From: a virus
Taxonomy: Duplodnaviria > Caudoviricetes
Reading direction: 5' to 3' (one strand)
IMG/VR virus record: IMGVR_UViG_3300013383_000023
Location: 35,845-99,844 of that record
DNA length: 64,000 bases
Shown here: positions 2,818 to 59,231 of the stretch, one piece after another
Layout: the number at the start of each line of letters is the position of its first letter
Numbering within the stretch: the stretch's first letter is position 1
Made by a program: the position numbers and the translations under genes
Notes under the pieces: model-generated
The model's input: the letters and a program-made list of their open reading frames with translations, nothing else
The model's database searches: none
What the model was told of the DNA's origin: nothing

Positions 2818-3424
2818 AAGAATCGCCTTAGAGGCCATTTTAAGCCTCTTGGTGGCATTATCTTTACTGTATGGGATAACTATGCGTAATAATAATAAAA
2901 AGCTCACAGAGGACTTAAAAATAGCTAATAATAACATTGAGGCCTATTAGGGGTTACTTAGTAACTCTTAGTAGGCCAATAGTGTTTTATAGCTACGTGT
3001 GAAAGATTTGTAGTAGACAAATGATAAGTAGATTAAAGATTTAGTATATGTAGCGAAGAAGAATAACGTCAAAACTAAACAAATAAAGGCTGCGGCAACC
3101 CAAACGCAAATTATAGACGTTACGAGTGAAAACGAGACTAGTATTCCATTAGTAAAAGATATTATAATACAGGATAGTATTATATATAATATATATACTA
3201 AGTTATACTATACTATATAGAAAGATAGTATAAAGACTAAGTTAAATGTATCTAATAAACAAGATCTTATAGTATATACTAAACGTGAATACAAGAATAA
3301 GAAATGCTTTTTAAAACGTTTATTTACATTAGATTTTAAAAAGATAGATAAGATTTAGTATAAAATAATAAACTCTAATGACTTGATCAAATAGGACAGT
3401 GTTAGAGTAATACAAATACAATAA
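2774..3424 (+). CDS. Spanin-like membrane-anchored coiled-coil protein (TAG=Gln)
   Basis: N-terminal TM helix followed by a coiled coil, directly after the holin. Ten in-frame TAGs; TAA at 3422-3424. Confidence 0.6.
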
Positions 3425-12745: not shown

Positions 12746-14077
12746 ATGATATTTTAGTACGATTAGGCATTGGAAATGCCGACCATGAATGTATATGATG
12801 ACGGACTCATGCAGTAGTACATAAATGCTGTTAGAGATGATTATAAGCAAGGTTTGGCTGATCAAAAAGAGTTTGTTACCAAATATGGAGATTTCTATAG
12901 TCCTATACAGAAAAGTGTTGATTGGTGGAACGAAAACGTAAATGATCCAATTCGAGACTTTGTTGCACAAGCATCATAGTCTGGAATTGATATGAGGTCT
13001 CCTGAATTTAGAGCAGCATTATCTAGATTGCAAAACAGTATGCCATATGGAGAAATGTAGCGTCAAAAACAGCAAGCTAAAATGGCCGAATAGTATATTT
13101 AGAATCGCGACGCTTTAATTAGAGCTGGTAAATTTGATCCAAACTTTGAAAAGTATCTACTTAATGGCAAGACGCTAGAAACATGGGATCCAATTAAAGA
13201 CGGTTTGTGGACAAGAACGTCTCCAGAACAGCTTAATGAATTATCTGCGTTTGCAGCATTATCTACAAATGGTCTTAAAGATTCGTTCATTAAACGCGAA
13301 AATGGATACGATCATTATGGTATTACTAAAGAGAGAGTCCAAGATGCTATTGGTAGAAATATGTTAGATTATCTAAACTCTAATTCTGGAAAGTATTATC
13401 TTGACTTAATAGCAAAGGCCAATAATCTCGATATTAAAGATCCAAAGCAACGTAATCAAGCATAGCAATTACTTTTAGATTAGGCTGTAGCTAGATCTGG
13501 AAAAGTTAGCGATAATATTAAAGTTAACGAATATGATCTACTTAAGGTAAAGAATGATTATGATGTACAAATGGAGAAGATGCGGGAGGCCAATGACATT
13601 GAAAAGTTGTTAATGAAAGGTGCTTACGGATCAACAAATGGATAGTCTGGAGTATTTGCTGCACCGAAAGGTATGACGGCAGAGTTTGTTCCTACTGGTT
13701 ATCGTGTTACTCATTCGCCAGAATATTAGGGCAATATGACTAATAACGAATATAATGGACCTGATGGGAAAGTGTCTAAATCAAGTACAACAAAACCAAC
13801 GTATGCTGAAGTATATAATATAAGCGATCCGAAAAACGCAGATATATATGTAATTAATGATAAAGGCGTTATGCACAACCTTAAAATTGGGAATCATAGT
13901 AATCACAATGTTCGTTTTTATCCAGTAAAAGGTGCAATCACAGAAGGGAGGACTGGATTTTATTATCAATTGGGACAATTGACTTGGGCAGATAATTCTG
14001 GCAAGGATATTAAATCTAAGGACAATGTATGGATTAGACTTAGAAAGCAATACGTTCCAAATAAAACTAATAAATAA
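12746..14077 (+). CDS. Cargo protein (TAG=Gln)
   Basis: ATG 12746 is in frame with fragments 13205 and 13736; its TAA overlaps the next ATG. Confidence 0.6.
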
Positions 14078-17000
14078 TGAATAATAATAGATTAATTTAC
14101 AGAGACGCAAAACCCGCTAACTCAGAACGTGCCAATTTGTTTGACAGATTAGCAAATGAAGCTCGTGCAAAAACTGCTGCTTTTAGACAACGCCCAGATG
14201 TATCTAAGCGTCCACGCAATGTTGAATGGGTTGATAAAGTTATTAATCAGACAAATAAGGATTTATATGGAGATGTTGCTCAATACATCAAGCCTGTATC
14301 ACGTAGTTAGGCTATAAAAGATCGTTTAGATTTTAAAAAACGATATAATGACTATTGGGATTAGGTGCGATATAGAAATAAGGTAGATCAAGAAGAGAAC
14401 GCTGAAATAGAAAAAGAGCGACAATCGTTATTCGGAAATGGCTATGCCTCCAAAGTAAGTAGAGTTTTACCTATTGATCTAGCAAATCTTTCTTATACTG
14501 TTAAGAATATTGTTAATGATATTGCAGCGAATAAGGCTAGCGGTGGTGCCGAAGCATTAGAAAGCGATAATAGAGATTTGTTAACTAAGTCAGATTTAAA
14601 AGACGATGTAATAAACTATCTTAAAATTAAGTAGCAGTTTGACTTAGTTAAAGAAGCCCTTCCGCAAACAACTGGAGATAAACGACGTGAACTTGAGAGT
14701 GAATTGTATAGCTACAAACAATATCTTGAAGATCCAAACAATATCTAGAAAATGTCAGATTACGCTAATGCAAGAAATCGTGAACATGGATTTTGGAGAT
14801 AGTTTGGGGACGCTCTACGTGATGCTCCTGGTACAATGCTTGAACACGCTCTTGGATATACTGGAAAAGCAAGAGAAGAAATTTATGGAAGTCCAGAATT
14901 AGCTTAGAAAGTACGTGATAAGAGCTTGGTAGATGACACTGTTAAAGCTCTTATTTCTAAAGGCAGAGACTCATTAAAAGGAGAAGTTGGAGATGCTGCG
15001 TATTAGGCAGATGATTATTCTCTTGCAATAGCCGGAATTGAAACAGAAGACAAATCTGACAAAAACGAAATAAAAGAAAATAATGCTAGAGCGAACTAGC
15101 TTAGACTTGATGAAGCTAGAATTAGACAGAACATTCCAAGGGTTTGGACTGAAAAGTCTTAGATAACACAGGACTAGTCTTTATTTAATCCAGATTATTG
15201 GAAATACTGTGTTCCTGGAACTGTTGGATCTTCTATATCTTCTGACAATTTCTGGAAAGCTATGGCCATCAAAGGTGGTACAGCAGCGCTTGGAGCTGCG
15301 ATTGGAGCAGTAACCGGAGGCTGGAAAGGCGCCGCTTAGGGGGCTGTTAGTGGCTGGAATGCAGGTTCTGTTTTTGCATCTCCATGGGATGTGGCATCTG
15401 GATTTGATGAGAATAAAGTCGAAATCCATGACAAGTATCTTGATAATCTTTAGAAAAACCTCGATGCTAGAACCGCGAGCGATAACGCAGATGGTAAAGT
15501 ATCGCCATTAAAAACAGCAACACTTTCATAGCTTTAGAAATAGAGTCTTGAGTATTGGCGCAAACGAGGAATGTCTGATGATTATATAAATAATCATTAT
15601 GATATTAGTAATGATGAAGGTGTTCGTAATGTATTAAATGATCTTGCATCTGGCAGAACATCAATTACAAGCCCATTGGTTAAGGAATGCGCAATGGACG
15701 CAGCTCTTGGTCTTAATGCTCAATATTATTCAGATAATGTTGTTACAATGAGTGACACCTTCGTTGGATTGGGTGTAAATTGGCTTCCTGGAGGAAACTC
15801 GTTTAAGCTTGGAAAGACTATAATTAAGGGTACTGGTAAAGTAACTGGTATTACTGCTGCTGGTAAAGCGATTGCTAAATCAAAATTTGTTAAATCTGCT
15901 GGGAATATAGCAAAAAAAGCAAAAGATTATATTGGTGTTGAGCGCGGAAATAGCATGATAATGTTTGATAACGCAGCATCTAGAGTTGCTTCTACTGGGG
16001 CTGCAATTGATGCTACTGAAGCTGCTGCTGGCGGAATGGCAAACTCATTTAAAGCTGGATATAATGCGGTTGGCGGAGCCGCAGAAGAGCTTGGATTTGG
16101 TTTAGCTGGTAAGGCTGCAGCCGGTACAGTCGCTGGTACTGGAAATGTTCTAGTTAGAGCTGCGAAATCTGCATTGCCACAGAAGTATCAGCAATTTATA
16201 GATGATTTTGGAAGAGCTGCCGTTAATAAATATCAAGGAGTATTGGATAAACTTGCTCCAGTTGGTTCGTGGAGAAGATTGGCCGCTAAATATGGATATC
16301 AATATGCCAAACGTAGAGCCATTGGTGCCTTTTCTGAGGCGACAGAAGAAGGTAATCAATATCAGTTTTCTCAGAAAGACTTTTCTAAGTATAGATATGG
16401 ATTACCATCATTAACGGATTTGTTTATTGGTCACACTGAAGCTACAATGAATGCCGTTAAATCGTATGCATCATTATTTGGCATATGTGATAGTGAGCTT
16501 AAAGACGATATGGAATATTGGAACAATGTTAAGGGCGGAGCCGCTCTTGGCATGGCCAATGTTGAAGCTGCTATTCAGTCTGGTTTGTATACAAAAGAAG
16601 CTTATCAATAGCACGCTGTTAATAAAGCTCTTCAATAGGAACTTGCGAAGAATCGTGAAGACGAAAATATGACTAGGCGTTCAAATCAAGCTGTTTCTCA
16701 ACAAATGGCCAAAGGTCGTGGTGATGCGGTTATTAATTATCTTGAAGAACAAAAAGCTAATGATCAACGCAGATCAAAAGATCAGCGCATGGCTTCAGAC
16801 AAACAATGGGATAACAAAATATAGACTGCTAGAGAAATACAAGCTCTTACAGAAAATAAACAGCTTACAAGACGTCTTGAAGCTAAAGGTATAAAGTATG
16901 GCTCTGCTCAATATAATGCAGCTATTGCTGACTATTATAATTCTAGACAGCAGATTAGATAGAATCAAGAGGATATTAATGATATAAATCAACGTGTTCA

Positions 17001-20000
17001 ACAACGTGGAACTACGAAAAATAATTTGGATGCAGTTAGGTCTTATGTTGAATAGGAAGTAGATCAACAGATAAAACAGTCTGGACAGAAAGTATCTGAC
17101 GAAGAACGTGCTACTATTGTTGAAAACAGAGTAAAGGAGCGCGCTGCTATCAATGTTCTTTATAATCAATTATAGTCATTACTAGAGTTAAAGTCTAAAG
17201 TTAATACAGTAAAAGGATTCTTTAGAACATTAAAGCGTAATAAATTAAACAATATACAAAGTCATTCTATTGCATTAAAACATCTTAACGATCAAATATC
17301 TCAAGTAAAATCTTAGATTAATGAGCTTCATAATCTTAGAGCTGGAATACAAAACGAAGACGAACGATTTGATGTATTTGAAGGTAGATCAGAATCCGAA
17401 ATATATGATGATATAAACAACTCTAATGGCTTCATGAGAGATGGTTATGTTCAAGATCTTTCTCAACAAAAAGCTTTATTAGAATTCGACAATCAATAGC
17501 ATTTAATGCATATTGATCAGATGAATTATGGTATAGTAGAACGCGAGCGTGATACTAAAGGCTTGATTAATAAAGCTAAGAATCTAGTTTAGGATGTTAG
17601 ATATGAATATAATCCAGAAGAATATGAAAGACAGCATAAAGACAGAGTTGAACGATCTAAACGGGCAAAAGAATATTCTGATAAAGAAAAAGAGATTAAC
17701 GCGAAAATAGAAACTAGCCAAAAACAAATAAAAGACCTTAAAGAGCAAAACAATAAGAACTTTAAAGAGAGCAAATAGGCTGTTGCAGAAGAAGATCAAA
17801 ATATAACCAAACGGATATCCGATCTTGAAAGTGAAATAAAGAAAAATCAAGATGAACTCAATAATCTTCGCTCTGAAGCTAAAAAGCAGAATGATGAACT
17901 TAATAATCGAGAAAGACTAGCTAGCTCTAAACGCAAAGAGGATGATAGATACGTTCAACGTATTAATAGAATTCTTGACGTTCAAAAAGAAGACGATGCT
18001 CTAAATTGGATGGTTCAAGATATTGCTGAAGGTAATGCTGGACAAAAGATCGATGAATTGTAGGCAGAAGAATATTTTAAATAGTAGAAACAGGAAGATC
18101 AAGAAGATCAGGCCACTGCAGCTGATTATATTAGATATTAGAACGGTATAAGCGAGTTTGAGTCTAAAGAAGAACAAGAATCCGCTAAACGTGAATACGA
18201 AGAAGCTAAGAAAAAGCGTGAAGAGAAACTTAAACAGAATGGTTAGAAATGGAATAATCGTAGACAACGTGTATTAAGGTGGGCCGCAGATAAGCTTTCT
18301 AAAGCAAAAAATAAATATAAAGGTACGACGTATTCCGCATTAGGCGTAACTCCAGAATTCTTAGAAAATTTTGCTACTAGAATGATGTCTAGCGGTATCA
18401 TTGGAGTTTATAAGATAGGCAACTTTATTGATGACCTACGAGCTACTTTACAGTTCGCCGCAAAGACCAAAGGTCTTTCTGACAAAGATGTAGACAATGA
18501 GATTAAAGAGAACAATTCTGCGATAGTACGAGCTTATAAACGAGTTTCCACTAGAGTTTCTATGGCCTTAGCATTAACTGGAGCAAACGTTAAAGATTTG
18601 TTTAGTACCGATGATGAACTTGCATAGCATTTAATTTAGATTCCTACTGAGAGATAGAATCTTAAGCAGAATTCAAATTGGACTTCAGCTTAGTTAGCAG
18701 TTAAACAAAAGTTTGATGCGTCACAAGCGTAGATTTCTAGAGATGACTTTTACACTACTTACGTAAATGAGAATGGTAAAGAAGTAGCATATCGTAATGT
18801 TATATGGAGTGCATTTGGAAAGAAAGAAGATCAAGATAGTGCATCTTTGAAGAATGCTAAAGCAATAAGATCCGGAATATTAAATTATATTATTACTGGT
18901 GATATTAGTTATATTTAGAATATTGTTTTATCGTATGATAATGATATAGAGCTTTCTATAAAGGATACTCCAGGATATGATAAATTGGTAGCGTTTGCTA
19001 CAAATTTGTATAATAATATCCAAAGTAACGGATTGATGCCATTAGATGTTAATCTAAACATATATGGCAAAGCGAAGGACGGGTCAAATATATCGAGTTA
19101 GGCTGATATTGTATTGATTGACAGAAACGGCAACGCTATAATTTATAACGTGCTCACATCAATCTATTCTAATATAATGAATACTGGTCAAACATCTCAA
19201 GACTTAGGTACGATTAAGACTTTGGTGAGTCGTGCTATTTCTGAAATGAAGCCAGTTATTGAAATATTCCAAAATAAATACGGTCTTAATGTAAGCTGGG
19301 CTTCTATCATTCCAATACAAGTAGATCCAGGAGTTTCTATAAATGTTGAATCCGACGTTAATGGAGTTGGCGTTTCACTTAATAATATAGAAGAGCATTA
19401 TAATGTAGATAGACAACGTATTAATGGAATGCTTAATTTAGCTATTCAGAAATACAATGATTACGCTAGATATTTAGGTGTTGATCAAAGAGTTGGTATT
19501 GATCCATCAAGTATGCCAGTATAGCAAGTGTTAGATATGATTGATTCTATAAATAATTCTACTGAATAGTTAATCAGAATAGCTAATACTAACACTAAGA
19601 AGTCTTAGGAAACATAGTAGACAGAAAAGCGTACTGCTCCTATTCAAGATAATACTACTTATACAGAAAAAGAATAGGCTTTTATAGAGGCAGTAACTGT
19701 TCTTGATGGAATGATATCGAATATGCAACAGCAAGAAGGATTAGTTGACGATAATTTTATATTACAAACATTAGCTTGCCAAACATCTTTGTATCAACTT
19801 CTTAAGAGCAAAGAATCGTCCATAGATAACCTTAATCCATATAGTGAAGTAGTTGTAAAAGCATTGGAATATCTCGCTAAAAATTCTACTAACTATTCTG
19901 GATGTCGTAAAGCCATCAATAATTTTGTTAGTATGTCTATAGCTAATGACACAATGACTACATCATTGGATTCTGCTAACAACATGGAAGTGATGCTTAA

Positions 20001-23000
20001 GACGGCAAATTTGTGGAATAATATTTTTGGATAGATTTTAAGTTCTTAGGATTTATCTAACGATACAAAAATTCAGCAATGGTATTCTGAGCTTGCCAAT
20101 AATTTCTTAAAGCCATTATTGGACAATGCTAAATAGGACTTGCAAAATCGTAAAAATATAGATCCAGTTTCATATAATATCTTTAATAAAGTATTTGGAC
20201 AAACTCAAAATCTTATAGATCAGTATAACCAAAGATATAAAGTAGCCACATCTTAGCTTATTGATACTAATGATATATCTGTATTAAATAGCATGTCAAC
20301 AAGAACTATTAATCCATATACACGTGCTACATCTACATCTTGTTAGCCGTCTTTAAGTTCTATGCGACAGTCTAACTTTAGATCTATGGTTACTCAAAAA
20401 GATTTTACTGCTAATGCTAAAATATCGTTTAAGTTTGATAACAGAAATAATCCATTAATGATAATTAAGTATAATGGTAATACTGTTATACTTAATTTTG
20501 CAGAACCTATATCCAAAAATGGCTCTACAAAGAATATGGAGAATTATCGAGCTTATGCTGCTCCGTTTGTTAGAAAGCTTACATAGCTGATGCTTAAATG
20601 TCAAGCCGACCCAACGTTACATATATCTACTAAATTAAAAAAGCGTAGAGTTACATTTAACTATGACAATGGTAAGAATGGTCGTAAATATGAGCAGCAT
20701 AATGTTTCTCAGTTTCTATTTAGTTCTGAAGAGAATGGTCATAATATGTTTACCATCAAAGTATCTTCTGAAGATAAAATAGGTACATTGAAAGACAGAA
20801 GTGGTAATTTGATAATCTGTGATCAAAAAGGTTAGTCTATTGGTAATTTTGTAGATCCAGATACTGGAAACGGAAAATACAATCCTCCAGTTGGACAGTT
20901 AATATATATGTACAATGATGGACGTAATGAACAACATGGTAAATACACGCCAATTGTTCTTTCAGTTTAGTCGTTTGGTCAGTTAGGTATGACATAGCCT
21001 TTAATGGAATTGATTCGTCAGAGAGCAAATGGCAATATGCAGACTGAAGATGGATATGATATTGATGATCTCATTAGTCTAGTAATGTTTACACAAGACC
21101 CATCTAGTAGATATCAAGTAACTAATAATGCAATAGCATTTGGCGACCCTGGTATTGTAACAATTGGTAGAGTTAACTATAACGTTAATGACACTAATGA
21201 TTATCAAAAGCTTACTGAAGCTATTAATAATCTTCGCGTTTGTGAAAATATAGAATTACTTAATCAGAATTTAACACTATCCGATAACGATGCTTTGCAA
21301 AAAGTTTCTAGTATATTTAAGAATACAGACGAGAAGGAAGTAAGACTCCCTAATGGTCTTGTATTTACTAGAGATGATTTTATGCATCAAGAAAACGGCA
21401 TTATTACAGGATCTACATATCTTGGTTATATGATGCGTAACAATATTATTGGAACAAATGCCACTAATGTTGATGATACATATATTGAAATTGAGAGTAT
21501 AAGTCTTGAAAGAAATGATGATGGAATTGGAGATGCATCGAATACTATTAAAGAATCTAATTCTAAATCTGCTACAGCTGCTAAAGTTCAATCCGGACTT
21601 AATGGGCTAATGAGCGGAATCTTTAAATCTCAGAAACATAAACCTGGAAACGGTCTGAATGAAATAATAGATCAAAGTCAAATCGTTGGTAGAACTGACG
21701 AAGAAATAGAAGACTATAAGCGTAGAGCTTCTGATGTTATTCGACAAATGCTTGGTGATGGATCTGTAAAGACCATGCAATTTAAGAGTAGAGAAGAACT
21801 TAATGGCGAAAATCAAACTTCTGTTATTGCTGGTATTTGCCATTCTTCGTTTATCGAGCTTGGAACATTCGCTCCGGAATCTACTGTATATCATGAGGCG
21901 TTCCATAAGATATTAGAGCTTACGATGCCCTCTGCTAAAAGAGATAAGTTATATCAAGTTTATAGAAACAAATATAAGAATCAGAACTTATCGGAACGAG
22001 ATGTTGCAGAAGGGCTTGCCGACATGTTTACCAGTTACGTTCAACATAATATATTAGACAAGAATCTTAAAGGGTTTAAGTATTTCTATGGATGGTGTAA
22101 GAGAGTATGGTTCAATATGATGATGTCTATCAAATTCGGAAATCAATGGAAGAACTTTAAGGCTCTTTATGCACAAATGCTTCGTGGAGATTATAATGGC
22201 AAGGATTCGTATTCTGAAAATGTAGAAAGATTCAAAAATCAATTTGGAGATTCTTTGTATTACGAATTGGAAGATAAATAGTCTGGAGAATCAGTCAAAT
22301 TTGAGCATATCGCTAACATATCCGAAGCTAGAGAAGTAGCCAAATCATTGGCGTATTTAGTAATAAAAGCAAACGGTCTCGATAGTCTTAATCCGTCTGG
22401 AACAAAACTTAAACTTAATCAATCTACTCCAAATAAATTCAATCTTATTAAATCTGGTCTTGTATCATTATTAAGAGCTGATGGTGTAGATGTGTCACAA
22501 AAGACAGACGCTCAACGTATTTATTCTGAGGTTCTTGAGCAAAAGATAGAAAATGTAGAAGAAACCGATAAGAAAGGAAATGTAATAAAGAGGCAAATTA
22601 CTACTTATCCAAAATTTGCAGCGTTAATTCCGTTGATTAATCAATATATATCTTCTATATCTACTGGATTTAATGGACGTTTACAAGATATTGAAGATGA
22701 AACCGATTCTGATGTAGATTAGGCTGTAAAAGATAATATTGATAAATTTGATAAGGCATCCTATGAATTTAATCCATTAGATCAAGTTGTGGATCGTGTT
22801 AAAGTATTTTTCGGAACGTTACCTAGAGTAAAATATGATAGTTCTTCTAAAACATATAAATATGAAACTATTAACAGATTAGGAACTCCAGAATTTTATG
22901 ATGTTAGCCAAGTATTTACTACATTAACATCTGAAGTAAACGATTTGTCTAGTATAGAAGATCTTACTAAAAAGCTCGAATCTATGAAAGATCGTGATGG

Positions 23001-26000
23001 GTTACATAGGCAAGTGTATCATAAATGGAAGGCTCTTTGTGATTATCTTGACAAAAATCCAAACGATAATGATGCAAGACAGTTACAGATATCTGTTGCT
23101 AAATCTCTTAAATGTCATGTCAATAATTATGTATTCTGTTATAGTCAACGTGATTAGGAAGGCAATCTTATATCTCAAGTAAAGAATACAGAATATGACA
23201 GGGATACAGTATTCGCACCTAAACATTGGTTAGATAATCTTTACAACGGCAATACTGGAATATTTAGTACAATAAGAGATTCTAATGGCAATCCTGCTGT
23301 GAGTGCTGATGTTGATATATTAAAGAATGTATCTAACATGTTCGAATAGTTGAGATCTGAGTTAAGTAGAGCAACGTCTGCCACTTCCGATAGTAGTATA
23401 ATAAATCTTAATGGTGTACAAATAGATCTTGATGACCCTGCAAGCTTTAATTATTTAAAAGGATTTGTAGTACAACTTTTAAATAGTGTTGGTATTCCAA
23501 TCAATAACGAACAGCTTGATTATATTCTTAACAACAGATTTGATTCTAGTGACGCTCGAGGTCTTTCATTGTTTATGAACAGCAATAGTACTGATTCAAT
23601 GACTCCGTTCATTAATATTCTAGGTTCGCTTGTAAATAATGATGGTACACTGAATAACAAATACGCATCTGACGGATATACTAATTGCGGATTTATTAAA
23701 GAATTAGCAAATTGGATGGGTCAGTATAATAGATCTAGACAGACATCTAGTCGCCTTGGATTTGATTCTAAGAGATATTATCAAGTATCATAGAACTTTG
23801 CTATATCGTAGATTACAGACATGATTAATAGCCAGGACGAAAGTAATGATATATATAACGCATTACTAAATTCTAAGTATATGATGCTTGTTGGTCCAAG
23901 TGGAGCTGTTATGGGGTCAATATTTGCTAAAGCTATTAATAGTAAGCGTAAGTTTAAATTAAGATTGTTAACTGATATTGGAAGCAAAACAGATCGTTCT
24001 GACGATATTGGCAACACATATACTAATAGAACTGAATAGGATGACTTTATTGCTAAATACACAGCGCTTAGAGAAGGCTATGTATTATTTCCAACTCTTG
24101 CAGATAAATCTGGGTTCGTATATATTGATATTAATAATTATGGTAATTCAGAAATATCTATTCCAGGATTAAGTTTTGACACACAGTATGATGAACATGG
24201 TCATAGATTGTTAAGTGTAAAATCAGCTCCAAAAATTGGCTATAATCCAACAATTGGAAACTATTTTATACCTGATAATCGCGTTCTTGATTAGATGATA
24301 GAGTATGCAGAGCTTGAAAAGGCTAGAATTCTTGAAATAATGCAAGAGTGTGGATATGAAGATCGCGATAAGATTGATGGCTATGAAGACAATCCAAATG
24401 TTAAGTTTATCCCAAAAGAATATCGAGTAAAGAATATTCATACCGGGAAAGGTATTAGATTTCAATCGTTGAGAGATTTAGTTCTCGAAGACGGCGTTAC
24501 AACTGTTAATTTGTCTGACGAAAATAAAACTCCTGCAGAATTAATGAATCTGGCTAATAAAAATTTCTTCAATAAGACTCAAGAATAGAAACGTCAGATT
24601 ATGACAATGATTCTAGCTAGAGCTAATAAGAATATAGTTAATAAAGCTCTTAGTCTTGGTATTATTACTGTAGGAAACGATACTAATGGCGCAACTAAGT
24701 TAACAAATATGACAAGAAACGTATTTGATAACTTAAGAAATGTTGCATTAGATAATGAAGAGGTCAGAGCTCTCGCTAATTATTTGTTTAAGAATAATGC
24801 TGTATTTGCAAATGAGAAAGATAACGATAAGATTACCGCTAAACGTAATCTTTGCACAAGTTTAGCTATTGCCGCATTGCTTGGAGATGCTCAAAATAGA
24901 CATATAATTGGCACGTAGGAGACTCAAAGATGGTATGTGGGCAATCCTTCATCATTTAAAAATGACGCCGATATACAGAAACGTATGGGTTCTCTCATGT
25001 CAACTGGAGAAGATAATATAATGTATTACGGAGCTCCTAAATACTATAATTGTGCAGAAGTAGCAGATTATGTTGTTGGACTTAGCGAGGACGACCACAA
25101 TAAGTTTCACAATCTATTCTTAAATGGAGAATTAAAAGAAACTCTTGCAAATGCATTAATATCTAAGCTTAAAGATGGTGAGGACAACTAGTCTAAGATT
25201 AGGTATATATATGACATGGTTTATTCTCCAGATATGACTGTAGATAAAATAGAAGCAGAATTTAATAAACTTGGTCCAGAAGCTATTGAACAAATGAATA
25301 AGGCTAAGAAGAGAGCTTCTGATTTTACTAGATCATACGATGAAAATAATGTGGCCGATGGATAGTCTTATATGTCTGATAGAATGTGCGAGCAATTGCT
25401 TAAATTTAATGGCGCATGGGTTGGAGATGTTCCAAGAGCATTTGAATTAATACGTAAAGATAATTTGACAGAAAAAGAATATTATGAAGCATATAGATTA
25501 ATTCAGAAAGCTGTTAATATCGTTACTGTTAAATATACAGCATATGGAACTCGTATCCACCCTATAACTGGTGAACCTATAACATACCTTAATAAGTTTG
25601 CTATAGCTCCTATATTTAAGAATATTGCTACTGGTAAAATGAAAGATATTTGTCAGTATATGACTGATCATAATATTGATAATCTTTTATTTGATTCTGC
25701 AGTAAAGATTGGTTCATGCAATCCTATATAGTTTAATGGGGTTTCATTTGATAATGATCTTACTATATATCAACAGCCTTATGCTAATCTTAGAAAACAG
25801 ATGAATACAGATCCAGAAGAAGGCGACGAAATGCATATCGGTACACAGATGGTTAAGGTTGTATTATCGAATCTTATTTAGAACAGATTATACAAGAATA
25901 AATCTGGAGAGCTTATTGAAGGAAAATAGATTCTTTCCGATATGATGAATTGTATTGATAAGCTTAGAGATTTTGGAGAACAAGAATTCTTAGATCAATT

Positions 26001-29000
26001 CTTTACTAATGGCTCAGTTGATGAATCGAAGACGTCTAATTGGCTTACTGATCAAATGGGATCTAGAAATGCAACGGAACAATTAGTATCTGCGTTATCA
26101 CTTAAGCCGGGAGAAGATGGCAAACTTCACCAGAATATGCCAATAGCCGCTACTGCATCTTCTAAATGGGTTGAAAGTATCATCATATCAAATGTCAATA
26201 AGAAAATTGTAGATATTATGACTCCTGGCACTTCTTTTGTTCAACGTTCTGTATTCGCTATGGAAGATGAGAACAGAAAAGAAGGTGAAGGAGAAATAAA
26301 AGGCGCGGATTCTTACAATGGCCAAGAGCTTAAAATGATTAATAACAAGAACTCTATGGATGCTATAGTATCTCTTGATTATTTCAAGGATATTATCCCA
26401 AAGAGTATTAAGACGTTTAAAGATGCTCGTAAATGGCTTATAGACAATAAGATTATTGGTAATGATGCCGATGCAAATACTATTGGATATCGTATTCCTA
26501 CGTAGGCAGAATCATCAATTCACGCAATAAGAATTCTTGATGTAATTGATGATGTAAAAGGATCTGTTATACTTCCTAAAGCATTTACTACTGTAACTGG
26601 TTCGGATAAAATATATCAATGTTCGAACCAGTATAATATAAAAAACTCCTTTAATTGCTGGAAACTCCATATTGTGTGGACAATCAGCAGCCAAGCCCTT
26701 TAAGGGAAGGTTCAACGACTATCGAAATCATAGTATAAGAGAAACACTTATATGAAGAAGAGAGTAGAGTACACGAAAGTGGAAATGGGGAGCTTTTAAT
26801 GTATGGTAACAGTACATTAATTGAAGATATAGTCTGATCTCATTGGTAACAATGAGTTAACAAAAATGTTTGATATTGATCACCTTTATTTACAAAGATT
26901 AAACTTCAAAGTAGGTGAAGATGATAAGGTGATAGAAAATGCATACGATGCTTCACAAAAAGAGTTTTATCAGAACAAACTATTGAATACAATGATGGTA
27001 CTTCTTCTTGATACAGACAATTCCATGCATCTTCTATTCAAGTCTATTGATAACGATACTACATTGGCGCAAGATTGTGCTAAAGCTATGAGAAAAGATA
27101 ATTCTACTGCTAATCAAGCTTATAACTTTAATACATTATCAGAACAGGTTGGAAGAAAAAATACGTTTATTTCTGGTAAATTCGGTATAGGCCCTTATGC
27201 TCTTAACTTGACAATGCAAACATTGTTAGAACAATTTAATATGGACTTAAAGCCTAGCTCTATTCCTGCTAAAATTGGTAGGTCAAAAATCGGTAATCAC
27301 TTTACTGACGAAGGGGATACCACATTGGCGTGGTTAAGCGCATTTATCAACGGTAATGTCGACAATGTTAAAGACCCATGGGTGGCTAGACTTAATTCTA
27401 ATAATACAACGTTCAACATGATTAATTTCTTACTTAAACTTGGTTATGGAAAACAGGCCGTTTGGTTCTGCGCACAACCTATACTTAAGAAGTATGCTGA
27501 ATTCTAGAGCGTTAAGAATTGTAAGCTGTTACAAGACCCATAGAATTTTTAGTCGCAGGATGTAATGCTTGATAAGTTCTTAAAAGATAATATAGGAATG
27601 AGTCTTGAATAGGTTCGAGCGTAGGTAAAATCTATTCGTAAAAATGGCAGTAATCTAATCAAAAATACATTAGATAATGTTCTTCTTAAAAGTGCAGCTA
27701 CCGAGAATGGCGCTTTGTCTGAAAAAGAGACTAAAGATTTGTAGAAGAATGTAATGCTTACGTGGTTTGCATTAGAATCATCTGCAGAATAGTTATCTAG
27801 ATTAATTCAATTCTCGAAGATTGATACTAGAAAAGAAGGTAAAACGTTCTCGCAATTGACTGCTTACAAATATGGTTATCAAGCTTTATATAACGATAAC
27901 TACGATTAGTCTATGACATTTAATCAAAAGACTGCCAATTCGTAGTTAATGTATAATGATGAAGATTTAGCAAAACTTAGAGAGGGTACTTGGATTGGCC
28001 CAAAAACTAGAAGTGTTCTTAATTCTATATTTAAAGCAATGTCTAAATAGATGTTTGTTGCAAATAATAACTTTAGATCTAAAATTATAAAGATGGCCGA
28101 AATGTTGTATCCAAATTGTAAATACACTGGCAAACTCTCGGCCAATCTTATAGATGATTTGACTACTGGAGCAATATCGTAGATTAAGTGGCAATGGTCG
28201 GCGAGACGGGCTTAGAATCTCCTGGAAAGCACATTTGACAATTATGATCTTAATCAATTATTTATTGGCGATAATTCTGTCGCAAGAATGCTCGATGAGA
28301 TCAATTCTAAGATTGCAAATAATGAAGAATATTCAAGTAATGGCAAAAAGAGAAATTGGAACGAATTTAAAGATAATGAACTGCTTAACAGATTGCGTAG
28401 AAATTATGATTTAAGCAGCGATAATCAAAACGCTCCACAGTTTGTTGTTCTTACTAGAGCGTTTGATGATTCCAAGTTAGATACTGATAGACTTATTGAA
28501 GATTGGGAACAGTTGTTGCAAAGCGATAATGATTATGTTAGATTATTTGCTAATATGCTTGTTGCTTACGCTATGCTTACATCTTGTGAATACCAAGGAA
28601 AGAATAAATTAGCTAAATACATTCCATCTAAATTCTTATCTGGAGAATTATATGACTCTAAGGTTGATGGTGTTAGTTTTGCGGAATATATATAGTCTAG
28701 ATTAAATAATGATAATTTCGAAGACTTAAATATAAACTCAATTGTTAGCAATTAGATTAATAATAGAAATTTTGTAAAACGTAGAAATATAAAAGATTTC
28801 GATTAGTTTTACGATAAGCGCAACGACACATCTATACTTATAACCAAAGATAAATATAAAGAAAATCCTGCTCCTAGATATGTATCTGTAAAATCAGATT
28901 AGCTTTCAGCTGACGGAAGAATTACTAACGATCTATATTTATTATTTAATTACAACGATAAAGATCAAGCTGTGTATATAAAAATCTCAGAATAGGGATA

Positions 29001-29880
29001 CCATAATAAAGGCTTTGATATATTTGATTATAATCAATATGGCAATCCTATCGTTAACGATGCTATTGGTAATGACGAATTTGATTCAACTGAACAAGAA
29101 GATACTAATCTTAATCAAGATGAAGCTACTGATATGAAAACGGACGAATCTAATATTTCGGACAATACTAATTAGAATGTAGATAACGTTGCTCAGCAAC
29201 ATGTCGAAATTTATGAAGATGGATTTATTCAATTTGAAGATTACGGCCCTAAATTTAGATTAAGTACAGATAAAAAAGTTGTTGAGTATACAAATATTGG
29301 AAACGTTGTGATTCATGGCGATAATAATAAGTCTATTAGTATGAGCGCTTCTAATTTTTAGAAGTTCGTAGATATCGTAGAAAAATGGTTTGATGGTGAA
29401 TCCTTATACAGCAAAGATGGAACTAATAAATCTATTAAGTATAACAAAGATTTAAATTATAATGTAAATAGTATAATTGATGATATTGGTGGCTATGATG
29501 GAAGAAATGCTTATTACGCGAAAAATGATGTTGCAAAATATAATAAGCAGACACACAGCGTTAATATAAGTAATATTAATATGTATAATTTATATAAATT
29601 CGCAGAAAGCGGTTTGTTTGATAAAATAAATAAACTTGATATTACGAATATTAATGGCTATCCAGGCGCTAGCATTGCAGATAAATTATATAGTATACTT
29701 AATAATGTTGGAGTAGATAAATCTGATGTTGAGTCTGTAAAATCACTAGAAACATGTAATGATTTATTTGGTGAAAACGATGTAGATTTGCTTGCTAAAG
29801 AATTTGGTATTGATAAACAGACTTTAATGCAAGCCTTGGAAGAAGGAGCAAAGAAGCGTAAAAATTGTAAAGGAAAATAA
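14077..29880 (+). CDS. Giant virion RNA polymerase polyprotein (~5,180 aa after splicing; zincin HExxH plus two-barrel RNAP); exons 14077-26607 and 26869-29880; TAG=Gln
   Basis: Fragments from 14077 to 29581 share one frame and are broken by TAG. HEAFH at 21892-21906. 'GYRIPT(Q)' precedes the active-site motif 'TGSD|FDID', which is rebuilt by removing the intron. Confidence 0.85.
26608..26868 (+). ncRNA. Group I self-splicing intron (261 nt, no homing endonuclease)
   Basis: P1 is CTGGTTCGGAT/GTTCGAACCAG with a U.G pair at the 5' splice site. Core elements P AATTGCTGGAAA, Q AATCAGCAG, R TTCAACGACTAT and S AAGATATAGTC are present. Terminal G at 26868; P10 ATATCAA/TTGATAT; in-frame TAA inside. 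Confidence 0.93.
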
Positions 29881-40182: not shown

Positions 40183-40259
40183 GCGCCGTTCCAGGAGTTG
40201 AACCTGGTAATCTAGCCATTAAATGTGGCTTGCATTGAACCGAAAATGCTATAACGACA
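40183..40259 (-). tRNA. Atypical tRNA-Lys(UUU)-like gene (A33, weak acceptor stem)
   Basis: Cloverleaf with D stem GCAT/ATGC, anticodon arm AGCCA-CATTTAA-TGGCT and T arm CCAGG-TTCAACT-CCTGG. Confidence 0.55.
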
Positions 40260-55630: not shown

Positions 55631-55670
55631 TTTTGATAATGATTAAAGTAATAATGTTAATTAACTCTAG

Positions 55671-55753
55671 AGAGAGGCTCGGGCTCGAACCGAAATTTAC
55701 GCTAATAGAGAAACAGACATTAATATGCTGTCAGCCTGATTACTGAACCTCTC
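55671..55753 (-). ncRNA. tRNA-like element F, abutting the tmRNA coding piece
   Basis: GAGAGGT...GCTGACAG...CTATTAGC...TCGG-TTCGAGC-CCGA-GCCTCTC. Confidence 0.6.
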
Positions 55754-55755
55754 AT

Positions 55756-56150
55756 TTGGAAGTTTAACGACATTCCAGGTCGATGCTTGTTGTTATTGCT
55801 GCACTTAGCTCAAGACTTTACTTACGCTACGCAAGTGTAGTCTACAATATTACTATTGTTCTGATTTATTATTTACTATAAGTCTCGTATTTACCTTTCG
55901 AACGCATCAAAAGCCAATTCATCCCCATTGAATAGTATACCCATATTCACATATAGATATACTTGCTATAAATACTATTTTCTCAAACTGTATTTATATT
56001 ATTAGTAATCCTTAAAATGCATTGTAATACTTTCAGTGAATAATAATAAAACAATTTAAGTTATAAAAATAGATAATCTAAGCGGTGGAGATGCGCGGAC
56101 TCGAACCGCGGTCTACGTCCGTATTCTAATACTCAAACGACTTTAGTTTC
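55756..56150 (-). ncRNA. ssrA: Circularly permuted two-piece tmRNA (acceptor piece ~56150-56084, IVS 56083-55927, coding piece 55926-~55756)
   Basis: GGGGATG pairs with upstream CATCTCC-A-CC, giving G3.U70. T arm CGCGG-TTCGAGT-CCGCG; P2 TGCGTTCG/CGGACGTA. Tag ORF at 55863-55822 with a stop-codon hairpin, followed by two pseudoknots. Confidence 0.88.
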
Positions 56151-56309
56151 TTTATTGTAAATGTATAGTTAGGTCAGTTCTATACATTCGATTTAAGCTT
56201 ATTTAAATTCGTTTTAAGACATTTCTGAAGTCTTTGTGGTTAATTACTCCATTTAACAATATACTCTGCCTTAAAACGAATTATTTAACTTACATCATAA
56301 CGTTGGATT

Positions 56310-56605
56310 CATGGCTTATAGCTCTTAGTATCACGTTAAATACATCTTTTGATACATACATGCTGTACGACTTACCTTTCATAGGATATCTCTTATCACG
56401 TAAACAGGGCTCAATGGCTCTCATGTATACATTGACCTAGATAACATAGTTTATACACCCTGTTTTGAGTGTGTTCTACCCATACTTGGCTCAAGGCTCT
56501 TGATGATTGTGTTAATTCACAATGGCTGCGCTTGTGTCTTTATCCCGCAGAATCTATTCCAACTGTAATCATCACGCATAGTATTTTGGCTCTAGGCTCT
56601 CATAC
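56310..56605 (-). repeat. Four interspersed AGAGCY-N2-3-RAGCC motifs in a structured intergenic region
   Basis: - strand copies AGAGCCTAGAGCC (~56600), AGAGCCTTGAGCC (~56500), AGAGCCATTGAGCC (~56421) and AGAGCTATAAGCC (~56325). Confidence 0.7.
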
Positions 56606-56624
56606 TTTGGTATTTGTGCAAATT

Positions 56625-59168: not shown

Positions 59169-59231
59169 ATGTCCATCTGTATTCATAGAGGCTTTGGACT
59201 CTTATGCATTCCTGCATAGCTACATTAACAT
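59169..59231 (-). ncRNA. Twister self-cleaving ribozyme (type P1)
   Basis: AUGU-UAA-UGUA-GC-UAUGCA[GGAA]UGCAUA-AGAG-UCCA-AA-GC-CUCU-AUGAA-UACA-GA-UGGA-CAU; P1-P4 and pseudoknots T1 (UCCA/UGGA) and T2 (GC/GC) all pair. Confidence 0.85.

Follow-up and report, generated by a model that had tools for sequence, protein, structure and literature searches.

A probable circularly permuted (two-piece) tmRNA gene in a TAG-recoded crAss-like phage, belonging to a gene kept across the family Suoliviridae

Does a crAss-like phage of the gut carry its own transfer-messenger RNA (tmRNA), the RNA that releases stalled ribosomes, with the two halves of the gene in exchanged order? The question is raised by a short minus-strand locus in a 64,000-nt stretch of DNA (hereafter, the window; all positions refer to it unless stated otherwise) that forms the final 64 kb of the 99,844-bp IMG/VR record IMGVR_UViG_3300013383_000023. 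An original prediction, made from the letters of this stretch, had described the locus as a circularly permuted tmRNA gene of a crAss-like phage. All sequence elements that it listed were present when coordinates were recomputed, and its central claim was borne out by the anatomy of the locus, by covariation and by relatives. Based on these three lines of evidence, the locus is very probably a true tmRNA gene of circularly permuted (two-piece) form, this phage's copy of a gene kept across the Suoliviridae. The parts that carry this reading are as follows.

56114..56143, minus strand: 3' strands of the long helix P2, with P2c AAGTC at 56139-56143, P2b GTATT at 56128-56132 and P2a CGGACGTA at 56114-56121.
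56094..56110, minus strand: T arm CGCGG-TTCGAGT-CCGCG, in which three of five stem pairs covary and which aligns to the T arm of the Rfam models tmRNA_permuted and tmRNA.
56084..56093, minus strand: acceptor 3' strand CATCTCC (56087-56093), discriminator A (56086) and CC (56084-56085), with no complete CCA encoded.
55907..55926, minus strand: acceptor 5' strand GGGGATG (55920-55926), which pairs with 56087-56093, and the D-loop analogue AATTGGCTTTTGA (55907-55919), which aligns to the Rfam consensus GGGGnUGaAaUGGuUUCGAC.
55880..55906, minus strand: 5' strands of P2, with P2a TGCGTTCG at 55899-55906, P2b AATAC at 55887-55891 and P2c GACTT at 55880-55884.
55822..55863, minus strand: tag frame CAG AAC AAT AGT AAT ATT GTA GAC TAC ACT TGC GTA GCG TAA, giving (A)QNNSNIVDYTCVA and a stop.
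55820..55836, minus strand: stop-codon hairpin ACTTGC-GTAGC-GTAAGT, with 93% of cells paired in close relatives.

On the minus strand, a tRNA-like half reading GAC-CGCGG-TTCGAGT-CCGCG-CATCTCC-A-CC (56113-56084) lies upstream of GGGGATG (55926-55920), that is, the acceptor 3' half precedes the 5' half on one strand with 157 nt between them (56083-55927). This permuted order is identical in every variant and relative compared. The two halves form an acceptor stem, GGGGAUG/CAUCUCC, of seven pairs (GC, GC, GU, GC, AU, UA, and GC) that includes G3:U70, the alanine identity pair, and is followed by A as discriminator (A73). The stem, including G3:U70, is invariant among five close variants of the locus, and across 12 Suoliviridae sequences G1-C72, G2-C71, and G3:U70 are fixed while acceptor positions 4–7, the T stem, and P2a covary. 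Alignment to the RF04321 and RF00023 consensus shows both a T loop of the GGUUCGAnUCC type and a (G/A)AC junction before the T arm, and a D-loop analogue of the GG..UUUGA type follows the acceptor 5' strand. When both pieces were folded together with RNAcofold, the intermolecular acceptor stem was recovered (z = -3.4). The bases after the discriminator A vary (CCG in the window, CAA and CTA in two of the variants), and the eight compared sequences have only A-C in common; therefore, CCA must be completed post-transcriptionally. The pieces are further joined by P2, a long helix of 18 pairs in three segments (CGGACGTA/TGCGTTCG, GTATT/AATAC, and AAGTC/GACTT).

Five distinct versions of the locus were obtained from ENA, Logan, and IMG/VR through contigs encoding homologues of the downstream 106-aa ORF, and the structure was scored on their alignment (alignment A1; 86 pairs in 15 helices, 430 pair cells). 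Standard pairs occupy 99.1% of the 430 cells, compared to 33–45% when the partners are slid against each other, and 18 pairs have changed on both sides, a number reached by none of 500 shuffles; covariation in relatives had been proposed as a check, and it upholds the structure. In P2a, close relatives differ at both bases of seven of the eight pairs and still pair at 100%, and the helix has a distinct yet complementary sequence in each of the eight Suoliviridae sequences compared. The GTAAATAC block of P2 is kept in eight Oafivirinae-type sequences and differs in three Loutivirinae or Boorivirinae genomes. In ENA and Logan assemblies made independently of each other, 13 contigs carry the window's own version of the locus together with an identical neighbouring gene, and the order of the halves is the same in the four diverged variants; an assembly artefact, which the original prediction had named as a danger, is therefore excluded.

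The same observations bear on the idea that the locus is a remnant of a host tmRNA, for instance at the attachment site of an integrating phage, or a mis-assembly with its halves in the wrong order. Such remnants have a precedent, as integration at tmRNA genes is common and prophages contain fragments of such genes (PMC9004378). However, neither half is missing and the two covary, the order is shared by the 13 independently assembled contigs and by 9 of 10 related complete genomes, and the locus is no copy of the Bacteroidota tmRNA, with a different tag and a much smaller gene. We regard this explanation as scarcely credible.

The coding piece contains a tag frame whose homology with relatives shows that the frame and resume position given in the original prediction were right. 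The window tag QNNSNIVDYTCVA corresponds in position and frame to tags of the form GN..VVDYT[HC]VA followed by a stop (e.g., GNDNNIVDYTHVA and GNVNNIVDYTNVA), with its CAG codon aligned in register with the GGC or GAC of relatives. A core of ..V.DYT..A before the stop is common to the window tag and to the tags reported by ARAGORN in relatives (GNYNVVDYTHVA, DNYNVVDYTHVA, GNDNNIVDYTHVA, GNVNNIVDYTNVA, GNINVVDYTGLQEAA, GNNFVTDYTQLAVA, GNTSYVTDYTRLVA, and GNTSYVMDYTRLAA), and the Rfam alignment terminates at the same stop codon as the CAG...TAA frame. Among relatives, the codons for Asp, Tyr, Thr, Val, and Ala show synonymous changes, and both TAA and TGA are found as stops. In cr130_1, where the stop helix reads ACTCAC/GTGAGT, a Cys-to-His codon change and a TAA-to-TGA stop change jointly keep the pairing. 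These synonymous codon changes and the compensating changes of stop and hairpin are what a translated tag leaves behind, and they show selection on the tag at the peptide level. Two other reading frames were rejected. The tag AAITTSIDLECR, which ARAGORN proposes in relaxed mode, begins with GCA in the window; in two variants (L127 and L131) this start is ACA and the stop is AAA, and the stretch is a covarying helix, not a conserved tag. Resuming directly after UAGUA, by analogy with the spacing in E. coli, gives NNKSEQ and a stop in the window; a 1-nt indel puts this frame out of step with the conserved one. As a separate observation on alignment A1 (columns 116-150 and 351-440), two variants (L128 and L129) have the same tag region as the window, but their T stem and P2a are wholly different, a pattern that suggests that the gene has recombined internally or that its parts change at very unequal rates.

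Conservation of the tag also separates the tmRNA reading from that of a decoy, in which the charged RNA binds host SmpB and EF-Tu and competes with or shuts down host trans-translation with little productive tagging. The phage lacks smpB and so draws on the host pool, the pseudoknot pk1 is missing, and the resume codon has shifted from the family's GGC to CAG or CAU, all of which would suit a decoy; in addition, the tmRNA of mycobacteriophage DS6A, which lacks a coding sequence, is reported to inhibit E. coli tmRNA (PMC11915505). A pure decoy, however, needs neither an open frame in register, nor a peptide conserved over three subfamilies, nor synonymous changes, nor stop and hairpin compensation, and we consider this explanation improbable.

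To which phages does this gene belong? The DNA polymerase is 60–64% identical to those of cr131_1, cr272_1, cr130_1, Dulem virus 42, and a Bohxovirus (Crassvirales, Suoliviridae, Oafivirinae), and the phage is a TAG-recoded crAss-like phage of the order Crassvirales, family Suoliviridae. Under the standard code, just three ORFs in the window reach at least 350 aa, and reading TAG as sense opens the plus-strand genes between 5340 and 36146, including a 4,208-aa frame among the late genes that holds 68 in-frame TAG codons; reading TGA as sense brought no gain in window ORFs. The tmRNA gene itself lies among early and middle minus-strand genes that use the standard code. A full-length permuted tmRNA was found with RF04321 in 9 of 10 GenBank Suoliviridae genomes (Oafivirinae, Loutivirinae, and Boorivirinae), four of which exceed the cut-off of the model (70.6, 63.3, 54.4, and 49.6 bits), and default ARAGORN makes a permuted call in eight of the nine tmRNA-bearing relatives. 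RefSeq annotates 'transfer-messenger RNA, SsrA' in three of them (cr130_1, NC_055901.1 82000-82390; cr124_1, NC_055899.1 34357-34713; cr52_1, NC_055888.1 81171-81551), and the copies in cr131_1, cr272_1, cr60_1, cr10_1, Dulem virus 42, and a Bohxovirus are without annotation. Since RefSeq annotates the same gene in Suoliviridae and two-piece tmRNAs of phages have been published (PMC9004378), the novelty that had been claimed for the locus falls away: the window gene is a member of a known, catalogued but unstudied kind, not a new kind. We found no paper on tmRNA in crAss-like phages, and the word is absent from the Yutin 2021 analysis and from a 2023 Crassvirales review.

Several observations weigh against this reading. 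At the locus, neither default ARAGORN nor Rfam at gathering thresholds gives a match. RF04321 (tmRNA_permuted) does match it over the full length (55822-56142, minus strand; E = 9e-5 for 1.2 kb and 1.8e-6 for the genome), but with 33.4 bits the score is under the gathering cut-off of 47, so that the proposed check with one- and two-piece Rfam models gave a complete match of insufficient score. The other proposed check, ARAGORN in its permuted mode, was likewise split: the default misses the locus, and the relaxed threshold calls a permuted tmRNA there with the wrong tag AAITTSIDLECR, the same tag that is obtained, again in relaxed mode only, when the pieces are joined in silico. The resume codon is CAG (Gln), and CAU in the nearest relatives, compared to GGC in most of the family, and a 1-nt indel just upstream of CAG leaves the exact resume point uncertain. 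The C-terminus ..CVA is unlike canonical ..LAA degradation tags. Between P2c and CAG there are only 16 nt (ATAGTAAATAATAAAT), which leaves no room for pk1 and agrees with its predicted absence; pk1 is not universal among reduced tmRNAs, and its absence does not exclude membership. As predicted, no smpB occurs anywhere in the 99.8-kb genome, and without a phage SmpB the function of the tmRNA would rely on host factors.

The last point against concerns the pseudoknots, which belong to the remaining parts of the locus.

56188..56220, minus strand: conserved leader with two CTTAAA(A/T)CGA-like words, directly upstream of the acceptor piece and near-invariant in the five variants.
56161..56187, minus strand: 5' hairpin of the acceptor piece, with an 8-bp stem (ATGTATAG/CTATACAT) and an 11-nt loop; eight of eight pairs are kept in all five variants, and the hairpin also appears in the RNAcofold prediction.
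55927..56083, minus strand: intervening segment of 157 nt with hairpins IH1 (55968-55997) and IH2 (55934-55963), to be removed or to separate the pieces.
55783-55809, minus strand: candidate pseudoknot PK-a, GCT/AGC with GTGC/GCAT; two of four stem 2 pairs have changed on both sides.
55757-55782, minus strand: candidate pseudoknot PK-b, CGAC/GTCG with TGGAA/TTCCA.
55670..55754, minus strand: tRNA-like element directly after the coding piece, with a 6-bp stem (GAGAGG/CCTCTC) and a T arm (TCGG-TTCGAGC-CCGA), without a usable anticodon arm.

Of the two predicted H-type pseudoknots, the helices GTGC/GCAT, CGAC/GTCG, and TGGAA/TTCCA are present and two PK-a stem 2 pairs covary, but three of the four stems are invariant or wobble-only in the five variants; the fold is compatible with pseudoknots, which stay unproven. 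The region (55757..55809) differs in other genera. In the intervening segment, one pair of IH1 and three pairs of IH2 have changed on both sides with 100% pairing in the five variants, and the spacer ranges from 16 to 231 nt across Suoliviridae. The genomes of cr131_1, cr130_1, cr272_1, and cr113_1 each have one to three copies of a hairpin whose loop of about 15 nt (GGTTCGTGAGAATAG) is conserved and whose 6–7-bp stems covary freely; it often stands beside the tmRNA pieces and matches no Rfam family. The spacer hairpins of the window (55934-55997, minus strand) resemble diverged copies of it. Upstream, other genera have a hairpin of different stem sequence where the 5' hairpin of the acceptor piece sits. 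Repeated words similar to those of the leader are found in the same position in cr131_1 and cr130_1, and the leader may be a promoter or a processing signal. The narrow word TKTGWGAAWAT, taken as a promoter-like motif, showed no enrichment in the window, and sigma-70 and terminator scans gave nothing beyond chance.

Two of the six acceptor pairs of the tRNA-like element covary (GGAAGG/CCTTCC in relatives), and ARAGORN calls it at a relaxed threshold only. All five variants and most genera inspected have a tRNA or tRNA-like element behind the coding piece, and at the same position in cr10_1 and cr60_1 the Rfam tRNA model matches with 48.4 and 31.5 bits. The element at 55670..55754 is a probable degenerate end-marker of the coding piece. 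Its presence next to the locus, together with further such elements that the first reading lists in the early region and a tRNA-like element ending in GCCA within the spacer of cr130_1, could instead mean that the pieces serve as tRNA-like processing signals, punctuating one long early transcript, and have no role in trans-translation. Punctuation does not need paired half-acceptors 157 nt apart, a fixed G3:U70, a covarying 18-bp P2, or a conserved frame with a stop hairpin, and it is hard to square with the match of Rfam tmRNA_permuted over the whole length; we judge it very improbable. A decoy, punctuation, and a host remnant all fit the locus poorly because the tag is conserved and the covariation is long-range, and the two-piece tmRNA is the reading that we retain.

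Using blastn against 50,697 phage records, no match to the locus was found because DNA similarity was too low, and relatives were found through proteins and the Rfam model. The neighbouring ORFs (171 and 106 aa) belong to no PHROG family and have only few relatives. Immediately upstream of their tmRNA, cr60_1, cr52_1, and cr10_1 hold RAGATH-20 and RAGATH-9 RNAs that score above the Rfam cut-offs (L160:2063-2164 and 3099-3256; L159:2116-2218; L158:2934-3112 in our numbering). The counterpart of this space in the window (56285-56620) holds a different structured region, as noted in the first reading, with no Rfam match. The nearest IMG/VR relative has a type-P1 twister match of 52.4 bits (cut-off 67.2; L003:1928-1991, identical to L127:442-505) some 3 kb upstream of its tmRNA, and a twister had been proposed at 59169-59231 of the window by the first sequence reading.

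Is the gene tied to the recoding of TAG? The original prediction had suggested that it acts at stalled UAG codons, and eight complete relatives were compared for this association. Five of them are TAG-recoded with both a tRNA(CUA) and a tmRNA. No tmRNA was detected in cr113_1, a recoded genome with a tRNA(CUA), whereas cr10_1 carries the tmRNA under the standard code and without a suppressor tRNA; the eighth relative, the Bohxovirus, has a tmRNA and counts for neither code group. These two genomes break the association in both directions, and a general tie of the tmRNA to TAG recoding was rejected, which removes an attractive but wrong idea; the proposed action at stalled UAG codons is thus unsupported. 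By ARAGORN, no tRNA(CUA) was found in the whole 99.8-kb genome, and six recoded Suoliviridae relatives each have one. Three further observations concern the code and the RNAs of these genomes. In Bohxovirus sp. PV686213.1, long ORFs are restored neither by TAG as sense nor by TGA as sense, and the summed length of long frames stays low, which may reflect another code, intron richness, or sequencing errors. A group I intron (Rfam 88.4 bits) at 26576-26856 on the plus strand of the window splits the giant TAG-recoded frame, between 14077-26703 and 26821-29880. ARAGORN calls a tRNA-Lys(UUU) at 40183-40259 (minus strand) beside a tRNA-Leu(UAA); its anticodon loop, CAUUUAA, has A for the near-universal U33, it is absent from the Rfam tRNA matches at gathering score, and it may not be an ordinary tRNA-Lys.

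How would such a gene work? In the model that we favour, the tmRNA would be transcribed with the early and middle minus-strand genes. Host RNase P would make two cuts, one at G1 (55926) and the other where the tRNA-like element has its 5' side (about 55754), leaving a coding piece of about 170 nt, and host 3' processing and the CCA-adding enzyme would complete the acceptor piece, with the acceptor stem and P2 keeping the pieces joined. The host alanyl-tRNA synthetase (AlaRS) would charge the complex, which with host SmpB and EF-Tu would enter stalled ribosomes. Translation would resume at CAG and add (A)QNNSNIVDYTCVA, and tagged proteins would end in ...AQNNSNIVDYTCVA. This tag ending differs from the ..NYALAA of the host, and tagged proteins may meet a different fate. 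A plausible benefit to the phage is added ribosome-rescue capacity during infection, while host mRNA is destroyed. One of the most abundant gut phage families has a ribosome-rescue RNA with its own tag, which would depend on host SmpB and AlaRS. As standard finders miss the copy in the window, counts of tmRNAs in crAss-like phages are underestimates. A compact natural two-piece tmRNA with tRNA-like end-markers would also suit studies of processing and tag specificity in Bacteroidales.

Where does the permutation come from? A possible answer, which we put somewhat short of an even chance, is that the Suoliviridae tmRNA is a further independent permutation whose source was a Bacteroidota host's one-piece tmRNA and none of the alpha, beta, or cyanobacterial two-piece lineages, with its own build, a private tag (..VVDYT.VA), and in the clade of the window a change of the resume residue from Gly to Gln or His. 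This build would combine the lack of pk1 with a coding piece whose 3' end is marked by a tRNA or tRNA-like element. If true, the private tag may direct rescued proteins to a different fate. Most Suoliviridae have a Gly resume codon after AAC, AAU, or ACU, and this Bacteroidota-type resume context points to a Bacteroidota ancestor, hence to a separate permutation. A codon-degenerate pattern (AACU, then GGN-GAR-...-YALAA and a stop) retrieved at least 120 stretches, almost all labelled Bacteroidota, and among the matches listed ARAGORN called 111 of 112 tmRNAs as one-piece (351–409 nt, tags GENNYALAA or GETNYALAA, CCA not encoded), in agreement with the claim that Bacteroidota ssrA is one-piece. 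The lineage-specific permuted models RF01849, RF01850, and RF01851 reached at best 7.9, 10, and 17.1 bits on this genome (cut-offs 50, 84, and 70), and the alpha, beta, and cyano models gave only local matches to the tRNA-like core on the window and most relatives, below cut-off also on four relatives. A profile-HMM comparison with Bacteroidota one-piece, alpha-type permuted, and a second phage permuted group gave similar and low scores. An independent permutation is thus plausible, given that no lineage model reaches its cut-off and that a GGC resume codon follows AACU in relatives, but it is unproven. Permuted order is not confined to this family: an IMG/VR scan with a T-arm and acceptor pattern found it in roughly 40 of 117 viral stretches. 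A second group of viral permuted tmRNAs (IMG/VR contigs L030, L061, L097, L117, L118, L120, and L126) has spacers of 17–21 nt, tags GEQVELAMAA or GVQTEMAMAA, and, where the upstream sequence was inspected, GGC after AACU. Permuted genes with Bacteroidota-type features may therefore exist in more than one phage group, to judge by these sequences.

Compared to known systems, the closest published phage cases are the two-piece tmRNAs of the OM43 phage Melnitz and of pelagimyophages and cyanophages (Buchholz et al. 2022, PMC9004378); in that study, 53 of 133 unique phage tmRNA structures called by ARAGORN were two-piece (PMC9004378). Like these, the present gene is a permuted ssrA without smpB near early genes of a lytic phage, and extra ribosome rescue has been proposed for them as well (PMC9004378). 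However, Melnitz-type genes fall in alpha, gamma/beta, or cyanobacterial permuted lineages (PMC9004378), whereas the alpha, beta, and cyano models find only the local core here. In addition, the presumed Bacteroidales host has a one-piece tmRNA of its own, unlike the Melnitz-type cases, and no glutamine riboswitch was found here, unlike in the Melnitz comparison. With the two-piece tmRNAs of Alphaproteobacteria, some Betaproteobacteria, and Cyanobacteria, the gene shares the order of acceptor piece, intervening segment, and coding piece, an acceptor stem and P2 that hold the pieces together, and a full-length match to the merged model RF04321; it differs in reaching no lineage model at cut-off, in lacking pk1, in a tag unlike ANDE.FALAA, and in the tRNA-like 3' marker. 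The Bacteroidota one-piece tmRNA is longer (351–409 nt with pk1 to pk4, compared to about 290 nt in two pieces here) and has another tag ending, but it shares the GGC Gly resume context with most Suoliviridae relatives and likewise encodes no CCA, and genomes of Parabacteroides and Bacteroidales have the acceptor stem GGGGAUG/CAUCUCC as well.

Among Suoliviridae relatives, the window copy stands apart in its CAG (Gln) resume codon (GGC or GAC in relatives), in a region 3' of the tag that differs from other genera, and in a 157-nt spacer with two conserved hairpins, which is within the family's range of lengths. Particular to it are the degenerate end-marker, its being missed by default finders, and a TAG-recoded genome with no detectable tRNA(CUA). 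In other features the gene follows its family: permuted order, G3:U70 with discriminator A, no encoded CCA, no pk1, the ..V.DYT..A core with its stop hairpin, a coding piece followed by a tRNA or tRNA-like element, and a place within the early and middle genes are the same, and the GTAAATAC block in P2 is shared with Oafivirinae-type relatives.

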